Of a stretch of DNA of 64,000 nucleotides, positions 281-63,946 are shown in pieces; within the stretch, counting starts at the first letter, position 1; every line of letters begins with the position of its first letter. The notes below the pieces were generated by a model, which searched no databases, had not been told where the DNA came from, and worked only from the letters and a program-made list of their open reading frames with translations. The stretch is from the sequence record PZ386970.1; one strand, 5' to 3'. Position numbers and translations under genes: made by a program. Source of the stretch: a phage.

Positions 281-320
281 TTGATAGGTCTATAATATCA
301 TGTTTGAAGCACATGTAAAC
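281..320 (-). promoter_or_regulatory. early-type sigma70 promoter (family A): GTTTACA-N17-TGnTATTAT followed by AGACCTATCAAAAC
   Basis: minus strand reads GTTTACA, 17-nt spacer, extended -10 TGATATTAT; same 40-bp architecture recurs >15 times upstream of minus-strand starts. Confidence 0.6.
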
Positions 321-340
321 TGTTTTGTGAGAAAAATGCA

Positions 341-361
341 CAAAAGGGAGCCGAAGCTCCC
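341..361 (-). terminator. UUCG-tetraloop hairpin (GGGAGC-UUCG-GCUCCC) plus short U run, 3' of gene 52
   Basis: perfect 6-bp stem with UUCG loop on the minus-strand transcript, followed by UUUUG. Confidence 0.5.
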
Positions 362-437
362 TAATCATGTTTGTCCAACCAATACAACCAAATCACTAGT
401 GCAGCTATTGCACCGAGAAATCCTAAGGCTAGGGCAC

Positions 438-1763
438 TCAAAGTGCCTCCAAGTCTTTAGTGTACTCTGTCACAACATCAGTAGACTTCCAATACTCATT
501 TTCTTCTTTCTTAGCTTTAGCTTCTTCTGCTAGTTTACGTGCTTCGTCAGAAGTGATATGGAAGATGTTAAGACCTACCAGCTTATCGACATGTTCTTTA
601 TACATTTCTATTTGTGCTAGCTCTTCAGTCAAAGCTTTACGAGTCTTGCCTTGAATCACAATTTCGCCACTGATAACTTTTTTGATGAAGTGTGCCTTAG
701 CAAAAGCCAGTTTAAATGCTTTTTCAGATTCAAGAATTTTGTTGTCGATACGTTTCTGAACGTAAGTCTTACGGACTTCAACAAAATCTTTGATTAAGTC
801 TACTACATTATCGTAGACCGCTAATTTACCTTTTTCATTAATCACTGTGATGTTTTGTGAACGACGTTCGATGAGACTAAAATCTTTCATGATTTTTTCA
901 TGACGTAGCTCTTCATCGTCTGGAAGCGAGTACTCTTTACGGAACTTCACCTTAAACCCAAAGCCGTGTTCACCACAATCATCTTCCCATGAGATTAGAC
1001 CTTTGTCTTCCAACGGGTCAAGAACCTTACTCACATACGTTTCACGGTCGAATTTATATGGTATTTCAGTTATCTGCATTTGAGTACGAGATGTGAACTT
1101 ATATGTTCCGTGAATCTCATAACGCCCATCAACTTCATGCACTTCACCACGGAATTCTGGGAATTCAACTTTTGGCTTAGCGACATTTTTACCTTGAAGA
1201 GCTTGTAATACAGCCTTTTTGACAGATTTAAAACTATGAGGCAGAATATTTGTTGCGTAACCGGTTGCAATACCAGAGACACCATTCAAAAGAACTGTCG
1301 GAATAATAGGAAGATAGAATTTTGGTGGAACGTGTTCTTTATCTTCATGAGCTGGAGCATATTCAGTATCTTTATAGACATTATAGAAATTTTTACTTAC
1401 ACGAGCAAAAATATAACGAGATGCTGCAGCTTTTTGGACTGTTCGAGAACCAAAGTTGCCTTGACCATCTAATAGTGGATAGTTGTTATTCCATGTGTTA
1501 GCCATCAATGCACCTGCATCTTGTGCAGAAGATTCACCATGGTGATAACCTAAATCTGCAACACCGCCTGCAATTGACGCAAGTTTATGAAATTTTTCTT
1601 TATTACCACGAGCCAAATCTAATGCACGATGAACCACAAAACGTTGAACCGGCTTAAATCCATCAATCATATTTGGGATTGCACGGTTTTCAACGGTGTA
1701 CATCGCATATGCTAAGGCTTCGTTATCAATAATACTTTTTAGATTACGAGAATTCAATTGCAT
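438..1763 (-). CDS. 52: DNA topoisomerase II medium subunit (GyrA-like), gp52
   Basis: 441 aa; N-terminus MQLNSRNLKSIIDNEALAYAMYTVENRAIPNMIDGFKPVQR matches T4 gp52; synteny ndd-52. Confidence 0.9.
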   Translation of the reverse strand: MQLNSRNLKSIIDNEALAYAMYTVENRAIPNMIDGFKPVQRFVVHRALDLARGNKEKFHKLASIAGGVADLGYHHGESSAQDAGALMANTWNNNYPLLDGQGNFGSRTVQKAAASRYIFARVSKNFYNVYKDTEYAPAHEDKEHVPPKFYLPIIPTVLLNGVSGIATGYATNILPHSFKSVKKAVLQALQGKNVAKPKVEFPEFRGEVHEVDGRYEIHGTYKFTSRTQMQITEIPYKFDRETYVSKVLDPLEDKGLISWEDDCGEHGFGFKVKFRKEYSLPDDEELRHEKIMKDFSLIERRSQNITVINEKGKLAVYDNVVDLIKDFVEVRKTYVQKRIDNKILESEKAFKLAFAKAHFIKKVISGEIVIQGKTRKALTEELAQIEMYKEHVDKLVGLNIFHITSDEARKLAEEAKAKKEENEYWKSTDVVTEYTKDLEAL

Positions 1764-1767
1764 ATTT

Positions 1768-1908
1768 TCACCATATTAATGAACGAATATCCATTATAAC
1801 ATCTGAAATGAAAAGCACTACTTGGATTAGTCCAAACATCACACCGTAGTACAGAACCGTAAGCAACAACAAGAGCCCGAAGGCTCCTGCTAAGATTTTC
1901 TTAATCAT
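1768..1908 (-). CDS. small hydrophobic membrane protein (46 aa)
   Basis: manual translation MIKKILAGAFGLLLLLTVLYYGV...; start overlaps upstream stop (TAATG); occupies the T4 ac/stp slot. Confidence 0.3.
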   Translation of the reverse strand: MIKKILAGAFGLLLLLTVLYYGVMFGLIQVVLFISDVIMDIRSLIW

Positions 1909-2107: not shown

Positions 2108-2554
2108 TTAGTAACTCTGCAGAATGAATTTGAAATTATCAGCCAGAAGACGGTTCATTTCAGTGAGTGTTTGATATTCTGATGTATGGTTGCGAGTGAA
2201 TGCCAGAGCCAATTGACCTTTACCATAACCAGTGGTCAGTGGTTTCATGTTCTTAGCTGCAACAAAGATTACATCATATTCAATATTGTTAGTGCCCATG
2301 GTACGGGCTAGTTGCGAACGGCCTTGACGAATGTGAGAAAGAATTGCATCCAACCCTTGTTTAGAACGTTGACGTCCTACAAAGAATCGTGCTGCTACTT
2401 GTCGCCAATCAGATGAACCTTTAACGAAGAAGTAAAAACCTTCACGAGAACGAAACTCTTTAGAAACTTCAGAACCGTATTCGCCATTACGAACTACTGC
2501 AACAACTTCACCGCCAACTGCCAGAAGGTCTTTACGAGTTAAATATTTGGACAT
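2108..2554 (-). CDS. ndd: nucleoid disruption protein Ndd
   Basis: 148 aa; FYVGxQRSKQG...LSHIRQxRSQLART...[21 protein letters not shown]...EMNRxLADNFKF matches remembered T4 Ndd. Confidence 0.8.
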
Positions 2555-2630
2555 GCTAATTTCCTCAATTGATTAATGTTTTTGTAATCCATGAGAGCAT
2601 TATACTCTGCTCTCAAGAGTTTGTACAATT

Positions 2631-2831
2631 TTATTCGGCTATATCAGAACGTTCAAAAAGCTCTTCAACAGTTAAACATTCAGTGTCATCTTCAATAAAG
2701 AATCGAGTCCAACACGTTGGGGCGATACAGTTATGAGTTTGTCCGGCGATAGAAGCTACACGAATAAGCTGCTGACCATTATTCAGAACAAATTTTTCAC
2801 CAATTTCAACATCTTTAAAAAGCTTAGCCAT
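2631..2831 (-). CDS. hypothetical protein (66 aa)
   Basis: ATG ORF with family A promoter immediately upstream. Confidence 0.45.
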   Translation of the reverse strand: MAKLFKDVEIGEKFVLNNGQQLIRVASIAGQTHNCIAPTCWTRFFIEDDTECLTVEELFERSDIAE

Positions 2832-2847
2832 TTTGTATTCCTCGTGT

Positions 2848-2889
2848 TTTGATAGGTCTACTATACCATAATCCTACCGTGATGTAAAC
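2848..2889 (-). promoter_or_regulatory. early-type promoter (family A)
   Basis: GTTTACA, 18-nt spacer, TATAGT, then AGACCTATCAAAACA on minus strand. Confidence 0.55.
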
Positions 2890-3081: not shown

Positions 3082-3345
3082 TCATATCTCAACTTCCGCG
3101 AGTTCCATATATCCTTTGTTGATAACCTCTTTAAGGTCTTTAGAAAGAATAACATTAAAATGGTCGTTCATATGCCCGTTAACCAGACGAGTTATTTCGG
3201 CTTCAGATGACATATAAGGCACGTCTGAGTCCCAATGAGATAGACCTAAATGAGTATAAATCATCCCTTCGTCATCTGCGGTGTTGTACATTGAAACAAA
3301 CTCACCAGTCACTTTATGTTTTGCGTAGAAAAATTTAAATTTCAT
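3082..3345 (-). CDS. hypothetical protein (87 aa)
   Basis: ATG ORF with family A promoter upstream. Confidence 0.45.
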   Translation of the reverse strand: MKFKFFYAKHKVTGEFVSMYNTADDEGMIYTHLGLSHWDSDVPYMSSEAEITRLVNGHMNDHFNVILSKDLKEVINKGYMELAEVEI

Positions 3346-3361
3346 GGTGTTATCCTCTTTT

Positions 3362-3401
3362 AGATAGGACTACTATATCATAGACCTACTTAGGTGTAAA
3401 C
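3362..3401 (-). promoter_or_regulatory. early-type promoter (family A)
   Basis: GTTTACA, 18-nt spacer, TATAGT, then AGTCCTATCTAAAAG. Confidence 0.55.
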
Positions 3402-12558: not shown

Positions 12559-12785
12559 TAGTAAGTTTCCTTCCAATAAGTTGTACCGTTTTCAGTGATT
12601 TCACGGAAGATACCATAGATAGGCATTTCATCACCAAGTTTTTCGTAAACGTAAACCACTTCAGTGTAGCATAAAAATTCGGTCCAGTTTTTCTGTACAA
12701 CAACTAAATCAGGATTAAACAAAACATCTTCAAACTCATCGATGTTTGAATCAGTAGTTACGTTTTTAATGATTTGACGTTTCAT
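12558..12785 (-). CDS. hypothetical protein (75 aa from MKRQIIKNV)
   Basis: track N-terminus MVYDTIDLSKQEEN is a translation of the promoter repeat; true start follows GAGGAG RBS. Confidence 0.45.
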
Positions 12786-12799
12786 AATATTCTCCTCTT

Positions 12800-12843
12800 G
12801 TTTTGATAGGTCTATAGTATCATAGACCATAGTTGTTGTACAT
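12800..12843 (-). promoter_or_regulatory. early-type promoter (family A, -35 variant TGTACA)
   Basis: TACTAT -10 followed by AGACCTATCAAAACAAGAGGAG. Confidence 0.5.
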
Positions 12844-13367
12844 CATTTTAGCAAAATAAAATCAACTTGTTCTGCCAATGAACGTCTAAACATTAATTGA
12901 CAACTTCCGAGTATGAAATCAGGTGCTTCATAGACCGCGATGTAGTATCCTTTAGCTTTCAAGAGTTCAACATCCACTTGGTCATCAAACCATGCATAAA
13001 CCGCGTCAACACTTTCAAATCCAAAATAGAACCCTTGAGCCCAATCTTCGCTCAATTCAAATGTGTGCTCAATTCTATAGTATCTTAAGATATTTTGTTC
13101 AAGGAGTTTGTCTTCATTTACTGTAGGACGATTAGGGACGTTATAGTTGTCGCCGTGATGGTAGAAGTTACCTGAGAGTATTCCATGCTTATCAAGGAAC
13201 TCCCATGTTTCTTCAGAGTTGTCGGTGCCCGACCAACCGTATGGTGAGCGAGGTTCTTTATTCCAAGAGGTTTCCCAAATTCTGACGGCTTTGCCGTCTT
13301 CGATAGCAATTCCTGGTAATGATTCACGTTGAGTACAAAAACTACGTTCTACGCGGTAAACTAACAT
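12843..13367 (-). CDS. hypothetical protein (174 aa from MLVYRVE)
   Basis: start placed downstream of promoter 13388-13425 after GAGGAG RBS. Confidence 0.5.
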   Translation of the reverse strand: MLVYRVERSFCTQRESLPGIAIEDGKAVRIWETSWNKEPRSPYGWSGTDNSEETWEFLDKHGILSGNFYHHGDNYNVPNRPTVNEDKLLEQNILRYYRIEHTFELSEDWAQGFYFGFESVDAVYAWFDDQVDVELLKAKGYYIAVYEAPDFILGSCQLMFRRSLAEQVDFILLK

Positions 13368-13387
13368 ATTATTCTCCTCTGGTTGAT

Positions 13388-13425
13388 ATGGCTCTATAAT
13401 ATCAAATCCAGAGGAGAAGTAAACA
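13388..13425 (-). promoter_or_regulatory. early-type promoter (family A)
   Basis: GTTTAC, spacer, TATTAT then AGAGCCATATCAAC. Confidence 0.45.
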
Positions 13426-13857: not shown

Positions 13858-14313
13858 TTAAGCTTTACGAGGAGATACATAGCGAGTGATTTCAGATTCT
13901 TTAACAACTCGGAAGTCACCTAAGAATACGATATTGTATAACTTTTCACCATCTTCAACCCATTGGTCACTAATGAAGCCACACATAGTATCAGTTTTGC
14001 TTGGATAACCGTATTCATCGATGAAGTCAAATTCTTTATCAGTCTGGAATTCAACACCTTTACACAAGACCCATTTGAACTGTACATTAGGTTCAGTAGA
14101 AGCAAAATGAGCGCTCACATGAGTTTCCAAGAATTTAGGACTTACGTAAGCGTACTGAGTTTCAGTTTTTCCAGAACTAGGAATGATTCGAACTTTAACT
14201 TCTTTAACACGACCAGTACCATTAGTACGAAGTCCTACCACTTCAACTAGACGACCTGCAGCTTTAGAACGAGATGCAGACGATACACGCTTAATTTCAC
14301 CAATAGTAATCAT
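13858..14313 (-). CDS. hypothetical protein, paralogue 2 (from MITIGEIKRV)
   Basis: paralogue motifs; start trimmed to lie downstream of promoter 14335-14372. Confidence 0.5.
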   Translation of the reverse strand: MITIGEIKRVSSASRSKAAGRLVEVVGLRTNGTGRVKEVKVRIIPSSGKTETQYAYVSPKFLETHVSAHFASTEPNVQFKWVLCKGVEFQTDKEFDFIDEYGYPSKTDTMCGFISDQWVEDGEKLYNIVFLGDFRVVKESEITRYVSPRKA

Positions 14314-14334
14314 AATTTCTCTCTCTTTGTTTAA

Positions 14335-14372
14335 ATTGAATTCACTATACTCCATCCATCCTTGGATGTACA
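14335..14372 (-). promoter_or_regulatory. early-type promoter (family B variant, palindromic spacer)
   Basis: TTGTACA, spacer GGATGGATGGAG, TATAGT. Confidence 0.45.
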
Positions 14373-14375
14373 ACA

Positions 14376-14870
14376 TTAATTTAGAATATTAACCACAGCA
14401 CTACGTGGAACTACACTAAAATCACCTGCATGAACAACGTTCAGAAGTTCAACACCGTCTTCAATCCACTGATCAGTTACCCATCCACTCACTGGTCCTG
14501 CGAACGGACGACGAATTGAAACAGCTTTACACAACAAATCAGTAGGCTCAATAGGCTTAATCAGAGTACCGTACATACAAGCGATATCCATATCAAAGTG
14601 GAGACCATCTTTAACAGGTGCTTCTTCAATCAACAGTTCAAAGTCGGTGCTTGGAAGGGCGGTAGTAGAAATTGTACCGTATGAATTTTTAATTTCTAAG
14701 AATAACCAAGGGCCTTCAGCTTGTTTGATGAAGTTAACAATAGTGAAACTATTACCTTGAGTGGCACCTAAAATTTCACAAAACTTTTCATAAGCTCGCA
14801 CTGAAGCACCGTACCAGTTGATTTGTTTTTCGTCTTTCAGGATGTAAGTAGCCGTAGTATTGATATTCAT
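14376..14870 (-). CDS. hypothetical protein, paralogue 3 (from MNINTTATY)
   Basis: C-terminal GWVTDQWIEDGVELLNVVHAGDF matches paralogue motif; start trimmed downstream of promoter. Confidence 0.5.
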   Translation of the reverse strand: MNINTTATYILKDEKQINWYGASVRAYEKFCEILGATQGNSFTIVNFIKQAEGPWLFLEIKNSYGTISTTALPSTDFELLIEEAPVKDGLHFDMDIACMYGTLIKPIEPTDLLCKAVSIRRPFAGPVSGWVTDQWIEDGVELLNVVHAGDFSVVPRSAVVNILN

Positions 14871-14894
14871 AATGGTTTCCCGTTTGGTTAAGAT

Positions 14895-14930
14895 AGAAAG
14901 ATTATACTCCAACCATCCTTGGTTGTAAAC
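14895..14930 (-). promoter_or_regulatory. early-type promoter (family B): GTTTACAACCAAGGATGGTTGGAGTATAAT
   Basis: near-identical copy at 57820-57857; related copy upstream of gene 43. Confidence 0.55.
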
Positions 14931-17993: not shown

Positions 17994-18034
17994 AATATTT
18001 TCCTCTGTCTTACGGACGTTAAGGTCATTTAGCT

Positions 18035-18755: not shown

Positions 18756-18769
18756 TTAGGTTTCTCCTG

Positions 18770-46177: not shown

Positions 46178-46185
46178 TTTGTATA

Positions 46186-46220: not shown

Positions 46221-46227
46221 CCCTAGA

Positions 46228-47730: not shown

Positions 47731-47754
47731 AAGTACCTCTTAGCTCAATTCATA

Positions 47755-47790
47755 GGTCTATTATATCATAATATTTAGAGACCTATCTTA
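47755..47790 (-). promoter_or_regulatory. promoter upstream of gene 55 with TATAAT and flanking inverted copies of the ATAGGTCT motif
   Basis: TATAAT then AGACCTATGAATTG; second ATAGGTCT copy in opposite orientation replaces the usual -35. Confidence 0.4.
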
Positions 47791-48296: not shown

Positions 48297-48673
48297 TTTA
48301 CCGCCTTAACAATTTTCAGGTCAGCGAATTTTTTCTTACGTTGATTTTTCATACGACGGATAGTCTTTTCAGAGATTTCATGTTTCTGATAAGCTTTAGA
48401 TTCAACACCAAATGCAGCAACGTCAAATTCAGAAAGAATATATTGTACTAGAATTTCACGAATAGAATTACGTCCAATTTTCTGGTCGTGTTTTTGCATG
48501 ATTTCATAAAGACGGAATTCCCACGCGTCAAGAACTTGAGGAGTAACAATATTGCCGGATTCCAGAAGAGCAACAACTTTATCGAAAGCGAAAGAATTAA
48601 CTACGTTTTTGATTTTAGTAGACATATTATTTTCCTCGGTTATTTTATTATCCAACGAGAGAATTATACTCAT
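48293..48673 (-). CDS. hypothetical protein (126 aa)
   Basis: ORF only. Confidence 0.45.
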   Translation of the reverse strand: MSIILSLDNKITEENNMSTKIKNVVNSFAFDKVVALLESGNIVTPQVLDAWEFRLYEIMQKHDQKIGRNSIREILVQYILSEFDVAAFGVESKAYQKHEISEKTIRRMKNQRKKKFADLKIVKAVK

Positions 48674-48691
48674 CTCCCAAGAGTTTGTATA

Positions 48692-48931
48692 TTATTTTTT
48701 AAGCATGAAAAGTAAGTAATTTGTATCACGTGGAGTAATATCAACACCCATATCAAAGATGCCTTTATAGATTGGGTATTTGTTTTCGGTTGTATCGAAG
48801 CTGAAACTATTTCCATCACAACTAACAGTAATAGCATCTGTTAAAATGTCATACTCAACCCTAACAATTGAATCCCCAATTTTAACGTCGAGGTGTTTTT
48901 TGAATTTGATAAAATCTAATTCTTGGGCCAT
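48692..48931 (-). CDS. hypothetical protein (79 aa)
   Basis: ORF only. Confidence 0.45.
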   Translation of the reverse strand: MAQELDFIKFKKHLDVKIGDSIVRVEYDILTDAITVSCDGNSFSFDTTENKYPIYKGIFDMGVDITPRDTNYLLFMLKK

Positions 48932-49207: not shown

Positions 49208-49333
49208 GCCCCATTTTCATCGATGAACTTAATCCAGTCATTTACAGACCATTTAGTTGTATCACCCTTTGGATTAACATTTAAAGTATATAATCCCTGC
49301 TTAAAAAGCATTCGTTTGATATTCATAATTTCC

Positions 49334-49627
49334 TCAACTGTAACGATAACATTCGTTAGCTTTACGTTTGGCTTCAGTATGAGAAGTATTATAATCATAC
49401 TCTTCTTTACTGTAAACATCTTTTTTCAACTTACGAACTTCTTTGCGGAGTTGTCGATTCATTTCATTCTTGACTTCAGAATCAACACCTTTCATACGTT
49501 TCCATTTATCTGAGCGGAAGATGTTTTCAACCATGTTTTTGTGGCTAACACCATCAGGAGCTTTACGCTTACCAAAATAGTCGTAATCGCGAACTTTCAA
49601 ATCTTTACGACGATATGTTTTACCCAT
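49334..49627 (-). CDS. hypothetical highly basic protein (97 aa from MGKTYRRKD)
   Basis: Lys/Arg-rich; start trimmed. Confidence 0.4.
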   Translation of the reverse strand: MGKTYRRKDLKVRDYDYFGKRKAPDGVSHKNMVENIFRSDKWKRMKGVDSEVKNEMNRQLRKEVRKLKKDVYSKEEYDYNTSHTEAKRKANECYRYS

Positions 49628-49634: not shown

Positions 49635-49883
49635 TCAGAGGTTGATTGATACAATGCGTTTGATAAAATTCACTTCACTTACTGAAAGGTCTTTAAGACC
49701 GATTGATTCTAAACGCTGAGTAAGCGTCAACATCGGGATATAGTCCCATTGAGTTTTAGACGCTTGATAAGTACGAACGCCATTAGCAATTTCAACATGC
49801 AAATTTGAAATGGTAACGAATACCAGACGCTCATCATTAACTTTAAGGGTTAGAACAACTTTCTTTGAATCTAAACTAATCAT
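49635..49883 (-). CDS. hypothetical protein (82 aa)
   Basis: ORF downstream of promoter 49900-49940. Confidence 0.45.
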   Translation of the reverse strand: MISLDSKKVVLTLKVNDERLVFVTISNLHVEIANGVRTYQASKTQWDYIPMLTLTQRLESIGLKDLSVSEVNFIKRIVSINL

Positions 49884-49899
49884 TTTATTTTCCTCTATA

Positions 49900-49940
49900 G
49901 TAGTTGGTTTAATCTTAACATATCTATCGAGGATGTAAAC
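49900..49940 (-). promoter_or_regulatory. early-type promoter (GTTTACA, 17 nt, TAAGAT)
   Basis: same architecture as 20895-20934. Confidence 0.45.
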
Positions 49941-55246: not shown

Positions 55247-55444
55247 TCAATATTCTCTATAAAAGTTACGATGAGAACGTTTAGCTTTGCGAAGCTGACG
55301 TTTAGTAGGACGAACTGTAAATGGTTGTCCAGAGAAAAAATTCGGATCGGTTTTAATAAGCAAATACCAATCATGCTTGCCATTTTTTAATAAACGGTAC
55401 AATAATTTAACTTGCATAATAATCTCTTCCCATTTCCATATCAA
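55247..55444 (-). CDS. hypothetical small protein with basic VRPTKRQ tail (65 aa)
   Basis: C-terminal FTVRPTKRQLRKAKR shared with ORF 25561-25773. Confidence 0.4.
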   Translation of the reverse strand: MIWKWEEIIMQVKLLYRLLKNGKHDWYLLIKTDPNFFSGQPFTVRPTKRQLRKAKRSHRNFYREY

Positions 55445-55545
55445 TTAATTCATTTATTGAAGGTTCATCATAACACGTTTCTTCGTCGTTGTAAACTGTT
55501 TCGACGTCTGGCTCGACTGTCTCCCATCGAGCGGTATACCATGGT

Positions 55546-56547: not shown

Positions 56548-56852
56548 TATAATGTTCTCTCAAATTTGTGGAAGCATTTACGGCATTTCAATTTCAAGTT
56601 ATCAGTGGTCCAGTTAACCAGTTGGACTTGGATAGTTCCACATTCCGGGCATGGGTGTTTTGCTGCCGATTTGGCAGCATTTTCACGTCGTTCAACCATT
56701 TTCATTATTTCGTTCCATGCCGGAGGAACGAACTCTTCTTCACCGTGGATTTTATCTCGCTGAACAAATTCAATCTTTGAACTATCGTCAATAAACTTAA
56801 CCAAGCCATGATTAGTGCTCATATCAATATCCTCTAAAAGACGTAGTTTCAT
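56547..56852 (-). CDS. zinc-ribbon protein (101 aa)
   Basis: CPECG...CRKC motif. Confidence 0.45.
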   Translation of the reverse strand: MKLRLLEDIDMSTNHGLVKFIDDSSKIEFVQRDKIHGEEEFVPPAWNEIMKMVERRENAAKSAAKHPCPECGTIQVQLVNWTTDNLKLKCRKCFHKFERTL

Positions 56853-57799
56853 TATAACACCTCAATGGCATTTCGTAAACCGTCCGCTTTCGCATTCAGA
56901 GCTTTTAACGATTTAGTCTGTTCTTTAATCTGGGCTTCGACTTCTTTCAGACGAGATTTGAGGTACTCACGTTCTTCGCTCAAGTTGTCAACTTTTTCTA
57001 CTTTAGGTTCTTTAATAGTCTTAAGTTTATACTCGTTAGGGTTCTTCAGCTTAATTCGGGTGCGAGAACTGAATAACATTGAACCGTTATCTTCGGATTC
57101 GTCGAACGTTTCAACAACATCCATAGTCTCTAACAATGTAATAAGTTTATAAGACAACGAACGAATAGTTTTGTTGTGCTTATTAATTTCTTCGGCTTTC
57201 ATGGTACCGAGATTACGTGAGTAATAATAAGGAACCTGGATATTAATTGATAATGATGCGTTACCATTACCGGTTGGTTTGAATACTGCAGTAACCCAAT
57301 CTTTAACATGAACTTTATTTGTACGACCATCACCACCTGTGAATAATTTACGAGAATGTTTAAAAAGCATATTCACTTGGTTATTGAATTCACAAGCAAA
57401 TTTATCAGCAAATTTAGTTTCAGGAATGGTAGAGAACCAATCGGCTAAATGGGTCTTTTTAACATCGTTAATAATAGTAAATTCAACTAAATCTGATTTA
57501 GATTCCACTGATTTGAAGCATGGCTTCATAAAGTTTTTAATATTATCGCGAGCTACAGTAGAAGATAATAAACGAGAACGTTTGAACCATTGAAGCAGTG
57601 TCCCTAATGAATGAGAATACGCATTCTGAGTATCTTTACAGATATGATTTTCTTGGTCTGTGTATGTACCAAAATCTCGAAGAATACCACTTACTACATC
57701 TCGGTGTGGAACATCAAATCCTAGTGTACCAGTGGCGCGCTGAGCATGAACGTTAGCGATAAGACCGGCAAAGTATTCAATGTAATGTGAACGTGTCAT
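56852..57799 (-). CDS. hypothetical protein (315 aa) with C-terminal coiled coil
   Basis: ATG ORF downstream of family B promoter. Confidence 0.5.
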   Translation of the reverse strand: MTRSHYIEYFAGLIANVHAQRATGTLGFDVPHRDVVSGILRDFGTYTDQENHICKDTQNAYSHSLGTLLQWFKRSRLLSSTVARDNIKNFMKPCFKSVESKSDLVEFTIINDVKKTHLADWFSTIPETKFADKFACEFNNQVNMLFKHSRKLFTGGDGRTNKVHVKDWVTAVFKPTGNGNASLSINIQVPYYYSRNLGTMKAEEINKHNKTIRSLSYKLITLLETMDVVETFDESEDNGSMLFSSRTRIKLKNPNEYKLKTIKEPKVEKVDNLSEEREYLKSRLKEVEAQIKEQTKSLKALNAKADGLRNAIEVL

Positions 57800-57819
57800 A
57801 ATATTTTCCTCTCGTTAAG

Positions 57820-57857
57820 ATAGATTTATTATACTCCAACCATCCTTGGTTGTACAT
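57820..57857 (-). promoter_or_regulatory. early-type promoter (family B): TGTACAACCAAGGATGGTTGGAGTATAAT
   Basis: near-identical to 14895-14930. Confidence 0.55.
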
Positions 57858-58914: not shown

Positions 58915-59442
58915 TTATGCGTGAACCGACTTTAAACGTTCTTCAAATTTCCGAAGAGTACTAATACGTTCTGCTTTCTGTTTTGTGTAGTTTGCAATAC
59001 GTTCTGAAGTGAGAGCGTATCGTTCGTTTACTGATTCTTTCATGAAGTCAGGGATTTCACGAGAAGCTTTAATTTCATCAAACTTATCGAGTACTGCCTG
59101 GTCTTCAGCAATTAAATTTTCGTACATCTCGATATCTTTCTTGATGAAGTCGATATCTTCCTGGGTTACTTTGGATAAACGAGATGCTTTATCCTTTTTG
59201 TACTGCTCGTTAGTTTCACGAGACCAGAATAATGTACGTTTTTTATTAGTGTTTTTGTAGACTTCCACAATTCCAACTGAATCGATGATAACAATCCAAT
59301 TCCAGCGAGATTTGAAAATCTGACCTCCATCCACGGTAATCTCGTTACCATAAGCAACGTCATTAAAGAACTTGCTCTGTGCTTCAGATTTAAATTTACC
59401 GTCGTTATAATTTACCAGGTTGAAAATATCTTTAGCGTTCAT
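58915..59442 (-). CDS. hypothetical protein (175 aa)
   Basis: ATG ORF downstream of family A promoter. Confidence 0.5.
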   Translation of the reverse strand: MNAKDIFNLVNYNDGKFKSEAQSKFFNDVAYGNEITVDGGQIFKSRWNWIVIIDSVGIVEVYKNTNKKRTLFWSRETNEQYKKDKASRLSKVTQEDIDFIKKDIEMYENLIAEDQAVLDKFDEIKASREIPDFMKESVNERYALTSERIANYTKQKAERISTLRKFEERLKSVHA

Positions 59443-59454
59443 GTTTTACCTCCA

Positions 59455-59496
59455 GTAGTTGATAGGTCTATAATAACATAACCATAGACCTTGTAA
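59455..59496 (-). promoter_or_regulatory. early-type promoter (family A)
   Basis: GTTTACA, 17 nt, TATTAT then AGACCTATCAACTAC. Confidence 0.55.
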
Positions 59497-59500
59497 ACAA

Positions 59501-59926: not shown

Positions 59927-60907
59927 TTATTTCAGTAAAGTTACTTCAGAGATTTCCTCCCAACCATCTTTATCAGTTGAAATAAAATCTGCTACATAAA
60001 GAGCCGTACGTAATGATACATTGCGAAGACGAGATACGTTAGCCTTCATCCAGGACAATGCTTTATACGTTTCTGCATCCGTCAGACCACGTTTCTGCAT
60101 CATGTCAGTAGATAATATTACATCTTCAACTCGAACCATAATCTCTTCATTAGAGTGTACTCCAAGGTCGAGATACACTGAACGAGATACTAAAGCTTGA
60201 AGGTGCGGAGCAAGTTTCGAACCACGTTCTAACTCTTTATCGATATCAACGTTTGTAATGAAAACGATAGTACCTTCAAACTCAAATTCTTTATCAATAC
60301 CCTTATCATCGAGATAAGATGACGCAGTACTCCAACAAACTTTGCGTTTATCGCCAGTATCCAATGCTGCTTTAAGAAGGTTCAGGATGTCCATATCCGA
60401 GAATACGTCAACGTCGTCGATTAAGAGAACGCTGTCTGCATCACGGTTGAGCCAAAGTTGTTCGTAAAGGCCAATACCAGAGATTTTGCCATTAATGCTT
60501 TTGTATTTGATGAAACCGTTATCATTAGCATTATTAAGTGCTTTATCCAGAGAATACGTCTTACCAATACCAGCTGCACCTGAAATAATGAGTGAACGAA
60601 TTTTGCCATCGATAATGCCATTCGTCATCATGTTCATTACTTTAAAGCGTTTGTTGATACGAGTTTTCATATCTTCAGTGCTTTCAACAACTGCAACTGG
60701 TGATGTCTCAACTCCTTCCATTACGATGTCTGATTTGAAGACCCATACTCCACGTTCAGAACCATCAATCATAACGAAAATTTTACCATCACCTAAGTGG
60801 GAACATTCAGGATTAAGCTTTGCCGGGAACCATGTCTTTGTGGCAACATAAGAACCAGAGATTTCGTTATTACGATAGATACCTTTTTTGATTTGAACGT
60901 TGAACAT
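59927..60907 (-). CDS. P-loop NTPase (AAA-like), about 326 aa from MFNVQIKKG
   Basis: Walker A SGAAGIGKT, Walker B LLIDDVD; start trimmed to the ATG preceded by GGAGAA RBS. Confidence 0.55.
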   Translation of the reverse strand: MFNVQIKKGIYRNNEISGSYVATKTWFPAKLNPECSHLGDGKIFVMIDGSERGVWVFKSDIVMEGVETSPVAVVESTEDMKTRINKRFKVMNMMTNGIIDGKIRSLIISGAAGIGKTYSLDKALNNANDNGFIKYKSINGKISGIGLYEQLWLNRDADSVLLIDDVDVFSDMDILNLLKAALDTGDKRKVCWSTASSYLDDKGIDKEFEFEGTIVFITNVDIDKELERGSKLAPHLQALVSRSVYLDLGVHSNEEIMVRVEDVILSTDMMQKRGLTDAETYKALSWMKANVSRLRNVSLRTALYVADFISTDKDGWEEISEVTLLK

Positions 60908-60934
60908 TTTATTCTCCAATTTACTCATTTCGTT

Positions 60935-60974
60935 TCGATAGGTCTATAATAACATGTTTAAAGCAAAAGTAAAC
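60935..60974 (-). promoter_or_regulatory. early-type promoter (family A)
   Basis: GTTTAC, 17 nt, TATTAT then AGACCTATCGAAAC. Confidence 0.55.
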
Positions 60975-60976
60975 AA

Positions 60977-61195
60977 TTATTTGCGACGAGATTTTTTGGT
61001 AAGAGGTTGAAAGAACACTGCTTTACCTGCCGGGGTTAAGGTGACTCGTAATGCGTTACCGATTCCTAAGGATGCTTTAACTAGTCCTTTAGCTTTCAGT
61101 TCACCGAATGCTTGACGTTGGTCTGCATCACGAGTGTTAACCATAAGACCTTTATCACCAGCTTCACGAATCATTTCTAACATTTTGGTTTTCAT
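60977..61195 (-). CDS. hypothetical small protein (72 aa from MKTKMLEMIREAG)
   Basis: track N-terminus IIDLSKQEEN is promoter read-through; trimmed. Confidence 0.45.
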   Translation of the reverse strand: MKTKMLEMIREAGDKGLMVNTRDADQRQAFGELKAKGLVKASLGIGNALRVTLTPAGKAVFFQPLTKKSRRK

Positions 61196-61210
61196 TTTGT
61201 TCTCCTCTTG

Positions 61211-61251
61211 TTTTGATAGGTCTATAATAACATATCCTAAAAGCATGTACA
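61211..61251 (-). promoter_or_regulatory. early-type promoter (family A, -35 variant GTGTACA)
   Basis: TATTAT then AGACCTATCAAAACAAGAGGAG. Confidence 0.5.
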
Positions 61252-61276
61252 CTACTTTTTAAAAATATTTTGACCC

Positions 61277-61601: not shown

Positions 61602-62591
61602 TTATTTATAGTAAGAATTATGATTTTCGAGATAGACTTGCTCAAGGAAATCATCCCAGAAACTCATATCTACTTTTTGTTGCATACCGTTCTTAGCGGC
61701 CTGTTCTGATGCTTGTTCTACCTGGTCAACGATATCTTCTAGGAATTCTTGTACAGTTTTAAACGTATGTTTACCAAGCTTAACATCGAGAATAAATGGA
61801 GCATCTTGAAGTGGGTAAACCAGGTCGCCGGTTTTATAAATTTCCAATAGTTGAAGTCCACCACGACATGCATGACTCAATGCTTTCCAGTCAATACCTT
61901 CGTTAGCTTCTGCCTTACGAGCACGTTCACCGTAGTTCTCTTCCAGTTTAACCAGGATGGCATTGAACTCTTTATTGGTTAACGTGTCTTGGAATTTACG
62001 GTCTAACAGACTATAGAACGTTTGCTTACCTGTTTTCTCGTTTTCGGTTTCAACCCATGAAGCAAATTCACCTACAGGCAGAACATTCTTCATATGTGAT
62101 AAACGAATTACTGCACCATTATCAAAGTATTGTCCCCATTCATTAGAACGTTTAAGGGCTTGACGAAGAACAGCCAGTCGAGAACCCTTGACACCGTATT
62201 TAGAAGCTTGCTTACGGACATACCCTAAATAAGATTTCATGTTAGTGGTATAGAAACGAGACCTGTTATCTTGAATATACTTCCATACATCAGGCAAATC
62301 AGATTTAACTACTAGACTTTGTGGAGTGTGAAGCATATCTAATGCGACGGTTTCACCATCCGCAGCTAGTTTAAAGAAATATTTGAGACTATATAACTCA
62401 TGGTCCACGTCGTCTTTTGTGTTCTTAGAAGATGTGTTATTCGTGTTCTTGCTCATATGTTCTTTAACGTTACCGGTCAAGATATCACGAGCATGAGGGA
62501 CATAAATTTCTTTAAAATCGACGTCAGATTCAGGAGTAGACGTTCCATAAAGGTGGCTACCAAAGTAGCCTTTCATAATTGTTTTCATCAT
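61602..62591 (-). CDS. nucleotidyltransferase-fold protein (329 aa)
   Basis: GSHLYGTSTPESDVDF resembles the Pol-beta-type NTase motif (G[SG]...DxD). Confidence 0.45.
   Translation of the reverse strand: MMKTIMKGYFGSHLYGTSTPESDVDFKEIYVPHARDILTGNVKEHMSKNTNNTSSKNTKDDVDHELYSLKYFFKLAADGETVALDMLHTPQSLVVKSDLPDVWKYIQDNRSRFYTTNMKSYLGYVRKQASKYGVKGSRLAVLRQALKRSNEWGQYFDNGAVIRLSHMKNVLPVGEFASWVETENEKTGKQTFYSLLDRKFQDTLTNKEFNAILVKLEENYGERARKAEANEGIDWKALSHACRGGLQLLEIYKTGDLVYPLQDAPFILDVKLGKHTFKTVQEFLEDIVDQVEQASEQAAKNGMQQKVDMSFWDDFLEQVYLENHNSYYK
61603..61610 (-). promoter_or_regulatory. late promoter TATAAATA
   Basis: exact TATAAATA about 33 nt before the ATG at 61570. Confidence 0.5.
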
Positions 62592-63061
62592 TTAGCCTTA
62601 TATTCAAGAGTAGGACAGACTTTTTCTTTACGAGCTTTAAGGTATTCACCTATTAATGATTTCTTACGTTCAATAGGCTCAAGTCCATTTTTAATTCGTT
62701 CTTGGTTTTGCGCAATGAGCTCAATTTCTTTATAATATTTTCTGTCGTTATATTTGTCTAACAACCAAGACGGACCAATTACCAACCCGGTAGCAATAAA
62801 AGCCATGACTGCTACAATTAAAATGCCTACACCAATTGAGGCTGGAACTAATGTCCATAGACTGCTAAAAACAAAGAATTTAGTTAAAATTTCCTGGCCA
62901 ATGATTGTGACTGCTGCTAAAATCGCAAATCCAATAATTGAAACAGCCAATACCGGGATTAACGTTTTCCAAAAATAAGCACACAACGTTTTCGGACGAT
63001 TCCATGTACTATTGAACGCGGCATAAATTTTAAAGTGCCAAGAGTTTTCATTGATAATCAT
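62588..63061 (-). CDS. membrane protein (157 aa)
   Basis: multiple TM helices. Confidence 0.45.
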   Translation of the reverse strand: MIINENSWHFKIYAAFNSTWNRPKTLCAYFWKTLIPVLAVSIIGFAILAAVTIIGQEILTKFFVFSSLWTLVPASIGVGILIVAVMAFIATGLVIGPSWLLDKYNDRKYYKEIELIAQNQERIKNGLEPIERKKSLIGEYLKARKEKVCPTLEYKAK

Positions 63062-63070
63062 AATAATTCC

Positions 63071-63613
63071 TTATTTCAAAGTCGGGATAATAGAATCGAG
63101 ATAAGCTTTAAGAGCAACCGCTTCATCTTTGTCTAATGTAACGATATGCTGACGAAGGTCATCAATTTGGCGAATAACTACGACATCACCGTCTTCATAA
63201 GAAGGATTAACGCCTAGGACTGTTGTATAGTCAGGGCGGTCCTGATTTGTAATAAAAGCATTACGGCATTTAGCCCATTGAAGTTTGGCCTTTTTGGCTG
63301 TTTCAGATTCCACGAATTCTTTCACCTTAGTGACGAATGTTTTCCAATTATTAATAGAAAGGCATTCATCTTCTGTTTCGATATTAACCCCACTATAAAG
63401 GCCGTGATAAAAACGAACTTGAAGGTCTTCATCGATGTTAATTACAGATGCATGGCCGGGCGGATTGAGTTTCAAAATCTTGTCCAGTTCCATAGGAAGA
63501 ATAGTAATAGAATCATCTTCTTGTGTCAGAACATACACATAACCGCGTTTTTCGATACATAAATCGCCAAACAACTCGGTTGTTTCAATTACGGTTTTCA
63601 TATTATTCACCAA
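63071..63613 (-). CDS. hypothetical protein (180 aa)
   Basis: ORF only. Confidence 0.45.
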   Translation of the reverse strand: MVNNMKTVIETTELFGDLCIEKRGYVYVLTQEDDSITILPMELDKILKLNPPGHASVINIDEDLQVRFYHGLYSGVNIETEDECLSINNWKTFVTKVKEFVESETAKKAKLQWAKCRNAFITNQDRPDYTTVLGVNPSYEDGDVVVIRQIDDLRQHIVTLDKDEAVALKAYLDSIIPTLK

Positions 63614-63782
63614 TTAAAGTTTCAACAAAATTCACCAAAGCATTCTGGCAAGCGTCAACCTGATTTTCATAAAAGTCTCCGTTATCATTTACCGCATGAT
63701 AAGCTACATCACTCAAATCTGAATCGGCTTCACGTAAGTCACGGATAAGGTCCATCAATTTATTAGCTTGTTCACGGGTCAT
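63603..63782 (-). CDS. hypothetical small acidic protein (about 58 aa)
   Basis: manual translation MTREQANKLMDLIRDLREADSD...; coordinates approximate. Confidence 0.25.
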   Translation of the reverse strand: MTREQANKLMDLIRDLREADSDLSDVAYHAVNDNGDFYENQVDACQNALVNFVETLIGE

Positions 63783-63904
63783 TTTACCATACTCGTTTCA
63801 ATAAGATTCACTATGCCGTTTACCATGTTATAAGTAAACATCGGATAATTGTATTGTACTACAACATAAGCGATAAGCAAAAGTTTCATTTTGTTCTCCA
63901 ATTG

Positions 63905-63946
63905 TTTTGATAGGACTACTATAACATAGTCCTACCAAGATGTAAA
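63905..63946 (-). promoter_or_regulatory. early-type promoter (family A)
   Basis: GTTTACA, 18 nt, TATAGT then AGTCCTATCAAAACAA. Confidence 0.55.

Follow-up and report, generated by a model that had tools for sequence, protein, structure and literature searches.

Early promoter cassettes and predicted read-through hairpins in an RB69-like Mosigvirus

The motif repeated along the 64,000-nucleotide stretch of phage DNA analyzed here (record PZ386970.1; hereafter, the window) is the standard early-gene promoter (Pe) cassette of an RB69-like T-even phage, read on the minus strand, and it belongs to the composite promoter/stem-loop (PeSL) kind that is already known (Arbiol 2010; Comeau 2014). Judged by its sequence, the window is from a Mosigvirus, an RB69-like member of the T4 family: identity to Mosigvirus genomes is 96-97%, and RB69 itself is collinear with it and ~96% identical. 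We give a probability of about 80% to the whole explanation, in which many Pe cassettes form a hairpin in RNA that enters from an upstream promoter, and in which the cassettes also act as recombination sites. A set of 58 predicted RB69 early promoters has been published (Nolan 2006; PMC1524935), and all 40 of the RB69 sites from our own scan are present in it. Together with the architecture of the sites and the Mosigvirus identity, this upholds the proposal of an earlier note on this DNA that the repeats are T4-early-like sigma70 promoters on the minus strand.

A cassette takes up the ~60 bp that separate one minus-strand early gene from the next. Its 5′ part comprises an A-rich UP-like tract, a -35 element GTTTAC(A), a spacer of 17-18 nt ending in TGn and a -10 element TAnnnT; a start-site box follows (A-6 G-5 A/T-4 C-3 C-2 T-1 A+1 T+2 C+3 A A), and the 3′ part is formed by an A/C-rich leader, a GGAG-type Shine-Dalgarno sequence and the ATG. 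The information content of T4 early promoters agrees with this position by position, the box from -6 to +8 included, so that the conserved element does cover the discriminator and the initial transcribed region, and the comparison with T4 that had been suggested comes out as a match. The start sites of the window phage are predicted, as are its early timing and the formation of the hairpins. In the T4 record, Pe133295 is named at the 7th nucleotide after its own -10; moreover, most of the 58 mapped T4 middle promoters have TAnnnT at -12 to -7 and thus start 7 nt after the -10.

That the repeats form a genuine family, well beyond chance expectation, was confirmed: we count 24-27 cassettes on the minus strand of the window. 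A window scan for GTTTACA-N17-TAnnnT returned 13 matches, all of them on the minus strand, against 0.34 expected, and the looser GTTTAC-N17..19-TAnnnT gave 21 minus-strand and 2 plus-strand matches. The box AGACCTATCAAAAC occurs exactly in four copies (278, 2846, 12800, 61210) and with up to two mismatches in seven, all on the minus strand (expected 0.74), while the -10 plus box TAKWATAGWCYTATC, again with up to two mismatches, has 18 matches, 16 of them on the minus strand (expected 2.45). An independent repeat finder placed the cassettes as the largest direct-repeat families of the window (61 nt in 8 copies, and a 99-nt pair of 74% identity). However, the copies are a consensus family rather than the near-identical segments of about 40 bp that had been described: over -37 to +9, the 24 sites share a mean pairwise identity of 50% (maximum 87%; random 27%), and six pairs reach at least 80%. 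Of the at least 17 sites said to bear the conserved element, the family stands, but AGACCTATC with at most one mismatch is carried by 12 early-type sites and one middle-type, MotA-box site at 47765. Most sites are intergenic, as claimed, but those at 56856, 55472 and 49393 are intragenic, and these have no start-site box.

All the cassettes described below lie on the minus strand. The local palindromes reported earlier are present. At 63887..63947 (-35 63947-63942, -10 TATAGT 63923-63918, box AGTCCTATCAAAAC, predicted +1 63911, ATG 63889), 13-bp arms TTGGTAGGACTAT/GTAGTCCTATCAA (63938-63926 / 63919-63907) span the -10, and the RNA is predicted to fold at -18 kcal/mol (z -6.2). Upstream of the nrdC.8 homologue (59440..59498; -10 59475-59470, box AGACCTATCAACTA), AGGTCTAT at 59491-59484 pairs with ATAGACCT at 59471-59464 (-13.4 kcal/mol, z -3.8), and at 12783..12843 (-35 ATGTAC, -10 TACTAT, box AGACCTATCAAAAC) the arms are GGTCTAT 12828-12822 and ATAGACC 12815-12809 (-9.5 kcal/mol, z -3.6). 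The cassette upstream of the sp homologue (24756..24817; -10 TATAGT, box AGTCCTATCAAATC) has the hairpin GGACTAT/GTAGTCC, and imperfect hairpins occur at 3343..3401 (-10 TATAGT, box AGTCCTATCTAAAA) and 2829..2889 (-10 TATAGT, box AGACCTATCAAAAC). In other cassettes the pairing reaches the ribosome binding site. At the modB homologue (19392..19450) the extended -10, -10 and discriminator pair with the Shine-Dalgarno sequence and AUG (GGAGGTCTATCATGAC), with a fold of -23.1 kcal/mol (z -4.9) that is kept in T4 (-20.8) and RB69 (-22.9). Upstream of a motB-like gene (13365..13424; -22.7 kcal/mol, z -5.8), the spacer TTCTCCTCTGG (13418-13408) pairs with CCAGAGGAGAA (13382-13372), which would mask the Shine-Dalgarno sequence. 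At 49881..49940 (-10 TAAGAT 49917-49912), the spacer TCCTCGATAG pairs with CTATAGAGGA, within which the Shine-Dalgarno sequence lies.

Further early cassettes are found at 61193..61252 (-35 GTGTAC, -10 TATTAT 61229-61224, box AGACCTATCAAAAC, ATG 61195), 60905..60974 (-10 TATTAT 60951-60946, box AGACCTATCGAAAC, ATG 60907; paired with 234-332 as the 99-nt repeat), 25498..25558 (-10 TACTAT, box CTTTCTATCAACTA), 25068..25128 (-10 TATTAT, divergent box AAACATAACAAATC), 18753..18813 at the modA homologue (-10 TACTAT, box ACCTTTATCAACCA), 17991..18072 (-35 GTGTAC, -10 TATTAT, box AGACTTATCAGCTA) and 14868..14930 (repeat family D5). The first of these also accounts for a suspected annotation artefact: the mechanical ORF 60977..61252 takes as its start codon a GTG that lies within the -35 of the 61229 promoter, and its IIDLSKQEEN is indeed read-through translation of that promoter. 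Several cassettes follow terminators. Those at 20874..20934, directly after the intrinsic terminator 20949-20970, and at 250..320 (-10 TATTAT, box AGACCTATCAAAAC), after the terminator hairpin 345-362, have no hairpin spanning the -10; that at 46163..46221 stands directly after the intrinsic terminator 46237-46256, and 26278..26336 comes after a UUCG-loop terminator-like hairpin at about 26343-26360. A variant subtype (repeat family D11) is represented by TGTACA-N17-TATAAT upstream of the ndd homologue (2552..2628), with GAGAGC/GCTCTC around the -10, and by TGTACA/TATACA-N17-TATAAT at 48623..48692, with GGGAGA/TCTCTC in the same place. The middle-type gene 55 promoter (47728..47788; MotA-box GCTTTA), the orthologue of T4 P55, has its box as in the early cassettes (TATAAT-AGACCTATG) and the hairpin ATAGGTCT/AGACCTAT. 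Of the intragenic matches lacking a box, 56820..56880 is probably a weak promoter or none, 55415..55496 is the orthologue of RB69 Pe:48639 and T4 site 47416, and 49324..49417 is that of RB69 Pe:43242.

PeSL stem-loops have been described between the -35 and -10 or overlapping the -10 (PMC2839356, PMC4122927). About 9-17 of the 27 cassettes of the window contain a convincing hairpin. Complementary runs of at least 7 nt between a spacer and its own downstream region occur in 36% of T4 promoters vs 2.7% of chimeric pairings (permutation p<5e-4) and, more modestly, in 21% vs 6.5% in the window (p about 0.01); for 97 unique promoters pooled, complementarity is 46% vs 16%. Among metagenomic promoters, the reverse complement of NNNCCT is found in the own spacer in 12% of cases (22% with wobble), and with swapped NNN in 0.4% (3.8%). 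In 26 TATAGT-type promoters, 79.5% of cells are paired vs 70.7% after shuffling, a value reached by 0 of 500 shuffles, with a significance that is inflated by the common descent of the sequences (orthologues, paralogues); with the arms slid, at most 58% of cells pair, and compensatory double changes appear in 11 of 12 pairs. Read-through RNAs have predicted folds of z -3.6 to -6.6, and RNAs begun at the +1 of their own promoter are predicted to be unstructured. Furthermore, read-through structure is weaker where the promoter stands behind an intrinsic terminator (-7.7 vs -12.3 kcal/mol, p=0.007). Hairpins with the box as 3′ arm make no contact with the Shine-Dalgarno sequence and have no U-tract. 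The RB69 orthologues of 3377, 2865 and 26312 form perfect hairpins that are degraded in the window, so selection on the hairpins is not strict.

Comparison with RB69 indicates that genes are also gained and lost by recombination at the cassettes, in keeping with the modular shuffling already described for PeSL cassettes (PMC2839356, PMC4122927). Five of 10 indel junctions relative to RB69 lie in or adjoin cassettes, an enrichment weaker than it appears because an indel of a whole gene is bound to end between genes, which is also where promoters are found. The cassette 57797..57857 (shared core TACAACCAAGGATGGTTGGAGTATAAT) is a clean promoter-promoter hybrid, its 5′ half that of RB69 Pe:52042 and its 3′ half that of Pe:51019, with the crossover within 27 bp of plain homology, and nrdC.5 is absent from the locus. 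The chimera 26278..26336 is upstream as RB69 Pe:20971 and downstream as Pe:20537, and here it is RB69ORF041c that is absent relative to RB69. An indel junction vs RB69 also falls at the 3′ edge of 49881..49940 (49860-49894), and RB69 lacks both the cassette 46163..46221 and the 275-aa ORF 45350-46177. The cassettes at 14906 and 57833 have an identical spacer (AACCAAGGATGGTTGGAG, 18/18 positions), and T4 Pe53907, the orthologue of the 59475 promoter, has a different core, with another arm pair, inside identical flanks.

The box could be merely the optimum of sigma70 RNA polymerase, through discriminator contacts, start-site choice and promoter escape, with hairpins arising incidentally from CTAT in the spacer and ATAG at the -10/box boundary. 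E. coli promoters do prefer G at -5, a sigma region 1.2 contact, and a pyrimidine at -1 with a purine at +1 in start-site choice; the strong phage promoters lambda PL and T7 A1 also start with ATC; and the same AGACCTATCAAAAC follows GTTTAC-N18-TATAAT in aquatic T4-like contigs from phages that presumably infect other hosts. Nevertheless, we consider this unlikely. The 58 mapped T4 middle promoters, with the same polymerase, sigma70 -10 and start-site spacing, are without the box (T at +2 in 15/58 vs 27/39 early promoters; C at +3 in 12/58 vs 21/39), and the T4 version (ACAACTATCAACTAC / TACCCTATCAA) differs from the Mosigvirus version AGACCTATCAAAAC at -5 to -3 (CAA vs GAC), although the same host is infected. 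In turn, the complementarity reaches well past CTAT/ATAG and co-varies at non-conserved positions. Somewhat less likely still is that the likeness of the copies, box included, reflects only common descent and gene conversion by the very active phage recombination, with nothing selected beyond the -35 and -10. The visible recombinants, the spacers common to paralogues, the swapped core at 59475 and the fact that the prevailing box variant differs between lineages would fit such concerted evolution; however, the core CCTATCAA is common to T4, RB69-like phages and distant aquatic T4-like contigs, thus outlasting neutral homogenized sequence, and box positions keep 0.7-1.4 bits despite the 50% mean identity.

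As for the palindromes, the authors who described PeSL considered that the stem-loops might have a part in DNA binding or recombination (PMC2839356), and the indel junctions inside cassettes would agree with cruciforms or single-strand hairpins drawing recombination or replication proteins and creating shuffling hot spots. We regard this as very improbable: among pooled promoters, internal stem mismatches are G·T in 13 cases, A·C in 2 and other in 1, so that only the sense strand needs pairing; plain homology explains the clean recombinant; and a stem containing the Shine-Dalgarno sequence is meaningful only in RNA. The least probable reading of all is that a dimeric DNA-binding protein of the phage, such as a factor shutting off early promoters a few minutes into infection, uses the palindrome around the -10, together with the box, as its operator. 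It would accord with the restriction of the box to early promoters, with two reviews that call the early shut-off mechanism unknown (PMC2988021, PMC3014915), and with the identical arms and spacing TAGGACTA-N8-TAGTCCTA at 63923, 24793 and in RB69. But other arms are unrelated and co-vary (GATGAGGTA/TACCTCATC, CCTAGAATTGTGA/TCACAATTCTAGG, GTTGACAAGATT/AATCTTGTCAAC, TTCTCCTCTGG/CCAGAGGAGAA), loops range from about 4 to >14 nt with the 3′ arm sometimes at the Shine-Dalgarno sequence, the palindrome is missing in about half of the promoters, and the strand-asymmetric mismatches are not expected from duplex DNA. Arm covariation, variable loop length and the excess of G·T over A·C favor an RNA hairpin whose loop holds the -10 over a fixed protein operator; of the two roles that the earlier note had suggested, RNA structure is thereby preferred and protein binding disfavored.

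By analogy with the T4 family, unmodified host sigma70 RNA polymerase would fire the cassettes immediately after infection, with the RNA beginning at an A, the seventh nucleotide past the -10, and its leader unstructured, leaving the ribosome site open. About half of the cassettes have a spacer complementary to the box (-7 to +5) or the Shine-Dalgarno region, and RNA read through from an upstream promoter would therefore fold, with the -10 in the loop; RNA begun at the cassette's own promoter would lack the 5′ arm and the hairpin with it. The hairpin may thus tell read-through RNA apart from locally started RNA, hiding the Shine-Dalgarno sequence and start codon of modB and of the motB-like gene, and elsewhere attenuating or processing the read-through RNA. 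Early promoter cassettes in RB69 being already catalogued, the motif family of the window is not new; its members also act as homology patches of 25-60 bp at which genes are deleted, inserted or swapped.

The minus-strand repeats of this phage DNA form a real family of promoters. The pattern GTTTACA-N17-TAnnnT has 13 matches in the window, all on the minus strand, where shuffled sequences predict 0.34, and GTTTAC separated from TAnnnT by 17-19 nt is found at 21 minus-strand and 2 plus-strand sites. The element just 3' of the -10, which spans the discriminator and the initial transcribed region and is called here the box, occurs as AGACCTATCAAAAC in four exact copies and in seven with at most two mismatches allowed, all of them on the minus strand and directly 3' of a -10 (0.74 expected); the joint -10 and box motif TAKWATAGWCYTATC gives, at the same tolerance, 18 matches, 16 of them on the minus strand (2.45 expected). 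Moreover, an independent repeat search returned the cassettes, i.e., the whole promoter units of about 60 bp, as the window's largest families of direct repeats, which reach from start codon to -35 (61 nt in eight copies, and one 99-nt pair with 74% identity). It is on these two grounds, pattern counts above shuffle and the independent search, that the family is taken as real. A generic sigma70 scan (TTGACA/TATAAT) showed no excess over shuffles (65 vs 62.7, 78 vs 71.9 and 66 vs 71.8); such a pattern is blind to the cassettes, which call for the specific GTTTAC pattern. Three pattern matches (56856, 55472 and 49393, sites being named by the position of their -10) lie within genes and have no downstream element. 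A search of the whole window with the Rfam covariance models at the gathering score gave no match.

An earlier note had described at least 17 near-identical sites of about 40 bp. The repeat family stands, near-identity does not: over -37..+9 pairwise identity averages 50%, with a maximum of 87% and 27% for random sequences, and the count of 17 falls to 12 early-type sites plus one middle-type when AGACCTATC is sought with at most one mismatch. Its proposal of T4-early-like promoters on the minus strand, with a conserved element 3' of the -10, agrees with the information content of 24 aligned sites, and the comparison with T4 that it suggested bears this out, the same scan revealing the same layout and core box at 39 T4 sites. 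In short, that reading is correct, and the feature is an ordinary one, previously described.

In the 24 window sites, aligned on the -10 (T-12, A-11 and T-7 being fixed by site selection), GTTTAC, followed by A or T, occupies -36..-31, and 17-18 nt separate it from a TAnnnT at -12..-7 that is extended by T-15 and G-14 (20/24 each). Upstream, the information content delimits an A-rich, UP-like tract at -39..-43, with A in 13-17 of the 24 sites at -39..-41 and -43, weaker than in T4. The box comprises an upstream half (A-6 in 19/24, G-5 in 13/24, A or T at -4, C-3 in 15/24 and C-2 in 18/24) and a portion around the start (T-1 and A+1 in 21/24 each, T+2 in 17/24, C+3 in 18/24, then A+4 and A+5). 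It is followed by an A/C-rich leader, a GGAG or GAGG Shine-Dalgarno sequence and an ATG, the last two within about 20-45 nt 3' of most sites. The genes that come next are early genes, or orthologues of T4 early genes, in the same orientation, among them the modA, modB, motB, ndd, sp and nrdC.8 homologues. The ribosome-site segment is conserved as well, as GGAGAAyAAAATG (for example in the leaders at 63889-63905, 61195-61210 and 252-270), and the GGAG of early Shine-Dalgarno sequences is known to be targeted by the T4 nuclease RegB (PMC3014915).

We infer that RNA starts at the A seven nt 3' of the -10, since the T4 record puts Pe133295 exactly there and most mapped T4 middle promoters have TAnnnT at -12..-7 from the mapped start; no genome-wide start-site map for T4 or RB69 was found in the literature searched. 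By analogy with the T4 family, unmodified Esigma70 would fire the cassettes as immediate-early promoters, without phage protein synthesis, starting at the A of CTATC. The DksA paper reports no discriminator motif by which affected early promoters could be told from unaffected ones.

The layout also has consequences for gene calls. As the earlier note had noticed, mechanical ORFs read through the promoters: ORF 60977..61252 begins at a GTG within the -35 and thereby gains VYMLLGYVIIDLSKQEENKM ahead of its true ATG. For a 333-aa gene, the longest-ORF call begins within the leader, at the in-frame ATG of 60928 (GAAATGAGTAAATTGGAG), and the true start is likely the ATG 3' of GGAG, at 60907. A degenerate third AACCAAGGATGGTTGGAG cassette (TGTACA-N17-TATAGT) lies at 14330-14393, near the boundary of ORFs 13858..14376 and 14376..14912, and may be a decayed or an internal promoter.

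The window cassettes are T4-type early promoters whose orthologues are already published. Over its first 20 kb the window shares 96-97% identity with a group of coliphages including APCEc01, classified in Mosigvirus, the genus of RB69, and it aligns collinearly with RB69, to which it is about 90-97% identical, vs 66-85% for T4; its genes, all on the minus strand, span 52, rIIB/rIIA, 39, dda, modA/B, 61, 41, 43, 46/47, 55 and nrdD up to the nrdC region. Nolan et al. (2006; PMC1524935) predicted 58 early promoters in RB69, with coordinates, and reported a preference for C at -3..-1; all 40 RB69 sites of the present scan are in their list. Written as Pe:number for RB69 predictions (and Penumber, without colon, for T4 early promoters), the orthologues of 297, 2865, 3377, 59475 and 63923 are Pe:162713, Pe:165283, Pe:165795, Pe:53683 and Pe:57689, respectively. 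The published RB69 model covers 51 nt up to the start site, which leaves +2..+8 (TCAAAAC) outside the logo (Nolan et al., 2006). T4 early promoters, a set that we rebuilt by pattern as the GenBank and RefSeq T4 records carry no promoter features, likewise present GTTTAC, a 17-18 nt spacer, TGn, TAnnnT and an upstream A-tract, and likewise stand 5' of early genes on the strand of those genes. They share the core of the box (A-6 ... C-2 T-1 A+1 T+2 C+3 A A C) and differ in its flanks, the dominant T4 forms being ACAACTATCAACTAC and TACCCTATCAA vs AGACCTATCAAAAC in the window; the form AGACCTATCAA contrasts in the same way with T4 ACAACTATCAA, and AGACCTATCAAC is found at only one of the 39 T4 sites, Pe65378. 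Hinton's review already mentions "additional regions of consensus" in T4 early promoters besides UP, -35, TGn and -10.

The box is proper to early promoters. T+2 and C+3, present in 27/39 and 21/39 T4 early promoters, occur in only 15/58 and 12/58 mapped T4 middle promoters; its absence from the latter means that the box is not simply a requirement of the sigma70 polymerase at T4 promoters. A metagenome scan with GTTTAC-N18-TAnnnT-NNN-CCTATCAA returned 100 unique sequences, a figure that measures spread and not frequency because the core was fixed in the pattern; among them are T-even-like genomes (165-173 kb) as well as contigs of aquatic origin with an identical AGACCTATCAAAACAACAAAAGGA leader. 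On the latter, GTTTAC-N18-TATAAT-AGACCTATCAAAACAACAAAAGGA is seen in L057 (Ga0308025_1007868; 248-288 and 1014-1054), which encodes a gp32-like protein judging by eye from its translation, and also in L070, L071, L075 and L104. These contigs appear to be T4-like phages, with probably different hosts.

The earlier note had further proposed, for the palindromes of several copies, either protein binding or an RNA structure, and the evidence favors RNA. In T4, many early-promoter spacers are complementary to their own downstream region, with arms that vary among promoters, such as GATGAGGTA/TACCTCATC in Pe73903, CCTAGAATTGTGA/TCACAATTCTAGG in Pe65763, GTTGACAAGATT/AATCTTGTCAAC in Pe57954 and GACAAGACT/AGTCTTGTC in Pe20576. 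As a null we used chimeric pairings of the spacer of one promoter with the downstream region of another, which keep composition and position-specific consensus. Complementary runs of at least 7 nt occur in 36% of own pairs vs 2.7% of chimeras in T4 (permutation p<5e-4) and in 21% vs 6.5% in the window (p about 0.01), and for the 97 unique promoters pooled from the window, T4 and RB69 a stem score of at least 6 is reached by 46% vs 16% of chimeras. Internal mismatches of the pooled stems are 13 G·T, 2 A·C and 1 other, against 127:102:344 in chimeras; given that a transition in a perfect stem yields G·T or A·C equally, the G·T excess indicates that it is the sense strand that pairs, which points to RNA.

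Metagenomic relatives behave alike. IMG/VR holds almost no Mosigvirus DNA (2 loci from a protein-anchored search and 6 from the DNA pattern, unusable for covariation), and covariation was assessed on the one metagenome scan in their place. Of 58 metagenomic promoters that have both an ATG and a Shine-Dalgarno sequence, 12% (22% if wobble is allowed) carry in their own spacer the reverse complement of the variable triplet taken together with CCT, vs 0.4% (3.8%) with swapped triplets, and eight distinct compensating combinations were recognized by eye among the sequences listed. Furthermore, 26 TATAGT-type promoters, aligned without gaps on one named structure, have 79.5% of positions paired, vs 70.7% in shuffles (0 of 500 reach the observed value) and at most 58% when the structure is slid along them, figures that are not probabilities as these sequences are kin by descent; changes on both sides are found in 11 of the 12 pairs, and G·U pairs are frequent. 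The separate tests agree with one another. We predict that complementarity of the spacer to the box or to the Shine-Dalgarno sequence is a general, co-varying and wobble-tolerant trait of these promoters in T4, RB69-like phages and metagenomic relatives. In the literature searched it was not found described for the early promoters of T-even phages, the available part of the RB69 early-promoter paper (PMC1524935) describes no hairpins, and it fits within the published concept of PeSL, cassettes in which an early promoter is joined to a stem-loop.

Convincing hairpins exist in about 9-17 of 27 cassettes, either across the -10 or between spacer and Shine-Dalgarno sequence. In a box class, exemplified by 63923, 59475, 24793, 12819, 3377 and 2865, the box (-7..+5) is the 3' arm and the loop consists of the -10 and its extension; the middle-type promoter of gene 55, at 47765, has this arrangement, and the hairpin of its T4 orthologue is kept with a G·U pair. 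In a Shine-Dalgarno class stand 13401 (arms TTCTCCTCTGG/CCAGAGGAGAA), 49917 and 19427, where GGAGGTCTATCATGAC, the Shine-Dalgarno sequence and AUG of the modB homologue, pairs with the -10 and the discriminator. Read-through RNAs, which enter a cassette from an upstream promoter, are predicted to fold at -9.5 to -23 kcal/mol (z -3.6 to -6.6), and RNAs started at the predicted +1 to be unstructured (0 to -3 kcal/mol, z above 0); the mean MFEs of the two kinds came from unequal lengths, and we rely on the z-scores instead. The folds that would mask the Shine-Dalgarno sequence (19427, 13401, 49917, and regB and modB of T4 and RB69) reach -20 to -23 kcal/mol, with z of -4 to -5.8. The modB hairpin is common to T4, RB69 and the window and the regB hairpin to T4 and RB69, with different arm sequences in both cases; at the regB promoter of both phages it is the own Shine-Dalgarno sequence that is predicted to be masked in read-through RNA.

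Two other explanations of the hairpins have to be weighed. A fixed operator to which a dimeric protein would bind on DNA, the other half of the earlier proposal, finds no support and is rejected on the grounds that arms differ and co-vary among promoters, loop length varies and mismatches are strand-asymmetric. Intrinsic terminators are likewise ruled out for the -10-spanning hairpins, as these have no U-tract 3' of them and are followed by CAAAAC. True terminator-like structures do occur beside the cassettes: G+C-rich intergenic hairpins with a UUCG (or CGAA) tetraloop and a T-run are found on the minus strand at 345-362, 4217-4232, 8841-8858, 11524-11539, 20949-20970, 26343-26360 and 46237-46256. 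Upstream of cassettes 297, 20910, 26312 and 46197 they stand as separate hairpins 14-24 nt 5' of the early -35, constituting composite terminator-promoter units, and judging from sequence they alone, among the hairpins of cassettes, look like intrinsic terminators. Little read-through is expected where a promoter directly follows an intrinsic terminator. These four cassettes have no -10-spanning stem, and promoters just 3' of an intrinsic terminator show weaker read-through structure (-7.7 vs -12.3 kcal/mol, p=0.007, n=12 vs 91, counts that include orthologues).

An RNA hairpin that forms only in transcripts coming from upstream would, by its geometry and predicted folding, tell read-through from locally started RNA. 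In the Shine-Dalgarno class the ribosome site is predicted to be masked in the read-through RNA, and the hairpin of the box class could act by attenuation, by processing or by protecting the upstream 3' end.

The closest matches among known systems are the T4-type early promoters, of which the cassettes are members, and the PeSL. The latter were defined in RB49 and phi1, with a stem-loop mostly between -35 and -10 or overlapping the -10, and were linked to indels and mini-circles (Arbiol, 2010; PMC2839356); the concept was later widened to T4/PST and vibriophages (Comeau, 2014; PMC4122927), and the authors also pointed to analogues, weaker and AT-richer, at the internal-protein loci of T-even phages. 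As in PeSL, one intergenic unit combines an AT-rich stretch with an early promoter, a stem-loop, a Shine-Dalgarno sequence and an ATG, and the window cassettes, too, lie beside variable genes and coincide with indel junctions among close relatives; site 47765 is a PmSL, the middle-promoter version. The stems of RB49, made of G-runs and C-runs, were shown to lower downstream expression in a terminator-like manner, whereas those of the window are AT-richer and have no U-tract. The stem-loops that the PeSL paper on T4/PST places just upstream of the promoter correspond to the separate UUCG terminators of the four window cassettes. In turn, T4 e, soc, 49 and I-TevI have their Shine-Dalgarno sequence and/or AUG in a helix of the long upstream transcript, and their own promoter stands in the 5' strand, which leaves the own transcript open (PMC3014915). 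The predicted geometry of 19427 (modB), 13401, 49917 and the T4 and RB69 regB promoters is of this kind, and we predict that the masking cassettes work like this promoter-in-hairpin control with an early internal promoter. Those T4 genes, however, use late or middle promoters, which delay expression, whereas the internal promoters of the window have the early GTTTAC architecture, and many window hairpins stop short of the Shine-Dalgarno sequence. The spacers TTCTCCTC and TTCCTC also resemble the insulation motifs of sigma54 promoters, in which, according to the available part of the report (bioRxiv 10.1101/086108), a CT-rich anti-Shine-Dalgarno stretch silences the downstream gene in read-through RNA; that work deals with another sigma factor and with genes of bacteria.

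Recombination has left its trace in the cassettes. Blast against RB69 shows 10 breaks of collinearity, 5 of them in or at cassettes as at PeSL indel junctions, an enrichment less striking than 5/10 suggests because whole-gene indels must end between genes. At 57802-57854 the window lacks nrdC.5, and its promoter there is an exact hybrid of RB69 Pe:52042, which gives the upstream flank and -35, and Pe:51019, which gives the box, leader and gene start, around an identical core of 27 bp; judged by its sequence, this promoter is direct evidence of cassette recombination. At 26312-26330 RB69ORF041c is absent, and a terminator and -35 like those of Pe:20971 adjoin a box and gene start like those of Pe:20537. 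The break at 46234 corresponds to a promoter (46221-46192) and its 275-aa ORF (45350-46177, minus strand, no Pfam match), absent from RB69 and directly 3' of a terminator; that at 49860-49894 falls on a cassette's 3' edge, and that at about 61306 lies some 50 bp upstream of a cassette. An 88-aa ORF that RB69 does not have either (61304-61570, minus strand, no Pfam match) separates the nrdC.11 homologue from the 61252 promoter. Two further breaks are homing-endonuclease-like, both on the minus strand: a 270-aa ORF with NUMOD3 at 8857-9669, probably a free-standing homing endonuclease, in about 795 bp absent from RB69 between RB69ORF003c and gene 39, and a 256-aa ORF with GIY-YIG SegE and NUMOD1 domains at 52757-53527, within an insertion of 1049 bp (52731-53778) inside nrdD, reminiscent of the T4 nrdD intron with I-TevII. 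Two neighboring genes contain an 80-nt direct repeat (13496-13575 and 13925-14004, 74% identity), which is a tandem gene duplication matching the adjacent MotB-like gene pair of APCEc01 and RB69.

Several inputs could have shaped the box: contacts with the polymerase (G-5, T-1/A+1), the 5' end of early mRNAs and their unstructured leader, service as the 3' arm of a hairpin, and homogenisation by recombination. Its conservation from coliphages to aquatic T4-like phages, together with its absence from T4 middle promoters, also suggests a bolder reading, improbable in our estimation, in which -6..+8 (core CCTATCAA) would be the cis-target of an early-only phage function and the -10 hairpins a general insulation device; that function could be the shut-off of early promoters or their selective stimulation by Alt-modified polymerase.

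For annotation, the analysis locates about 24 early transcription units and true start codons where mechanical ORF calls cross promoters (e.g., 61252 and 60928), and the differences in gene content with RB69 are traced to promoter-promoter recombination at five junctions and to homing endonucleases at two. If the role of the hairpins were confirmed, T-even early genes would be insulated, translationally or post-transcriptionally, from upstream read-through, which would help to explain how expression tracks whether each early promoter is on or off; were insulation by -10 hairpins indeed true, every early gene would depend on its own promoter.
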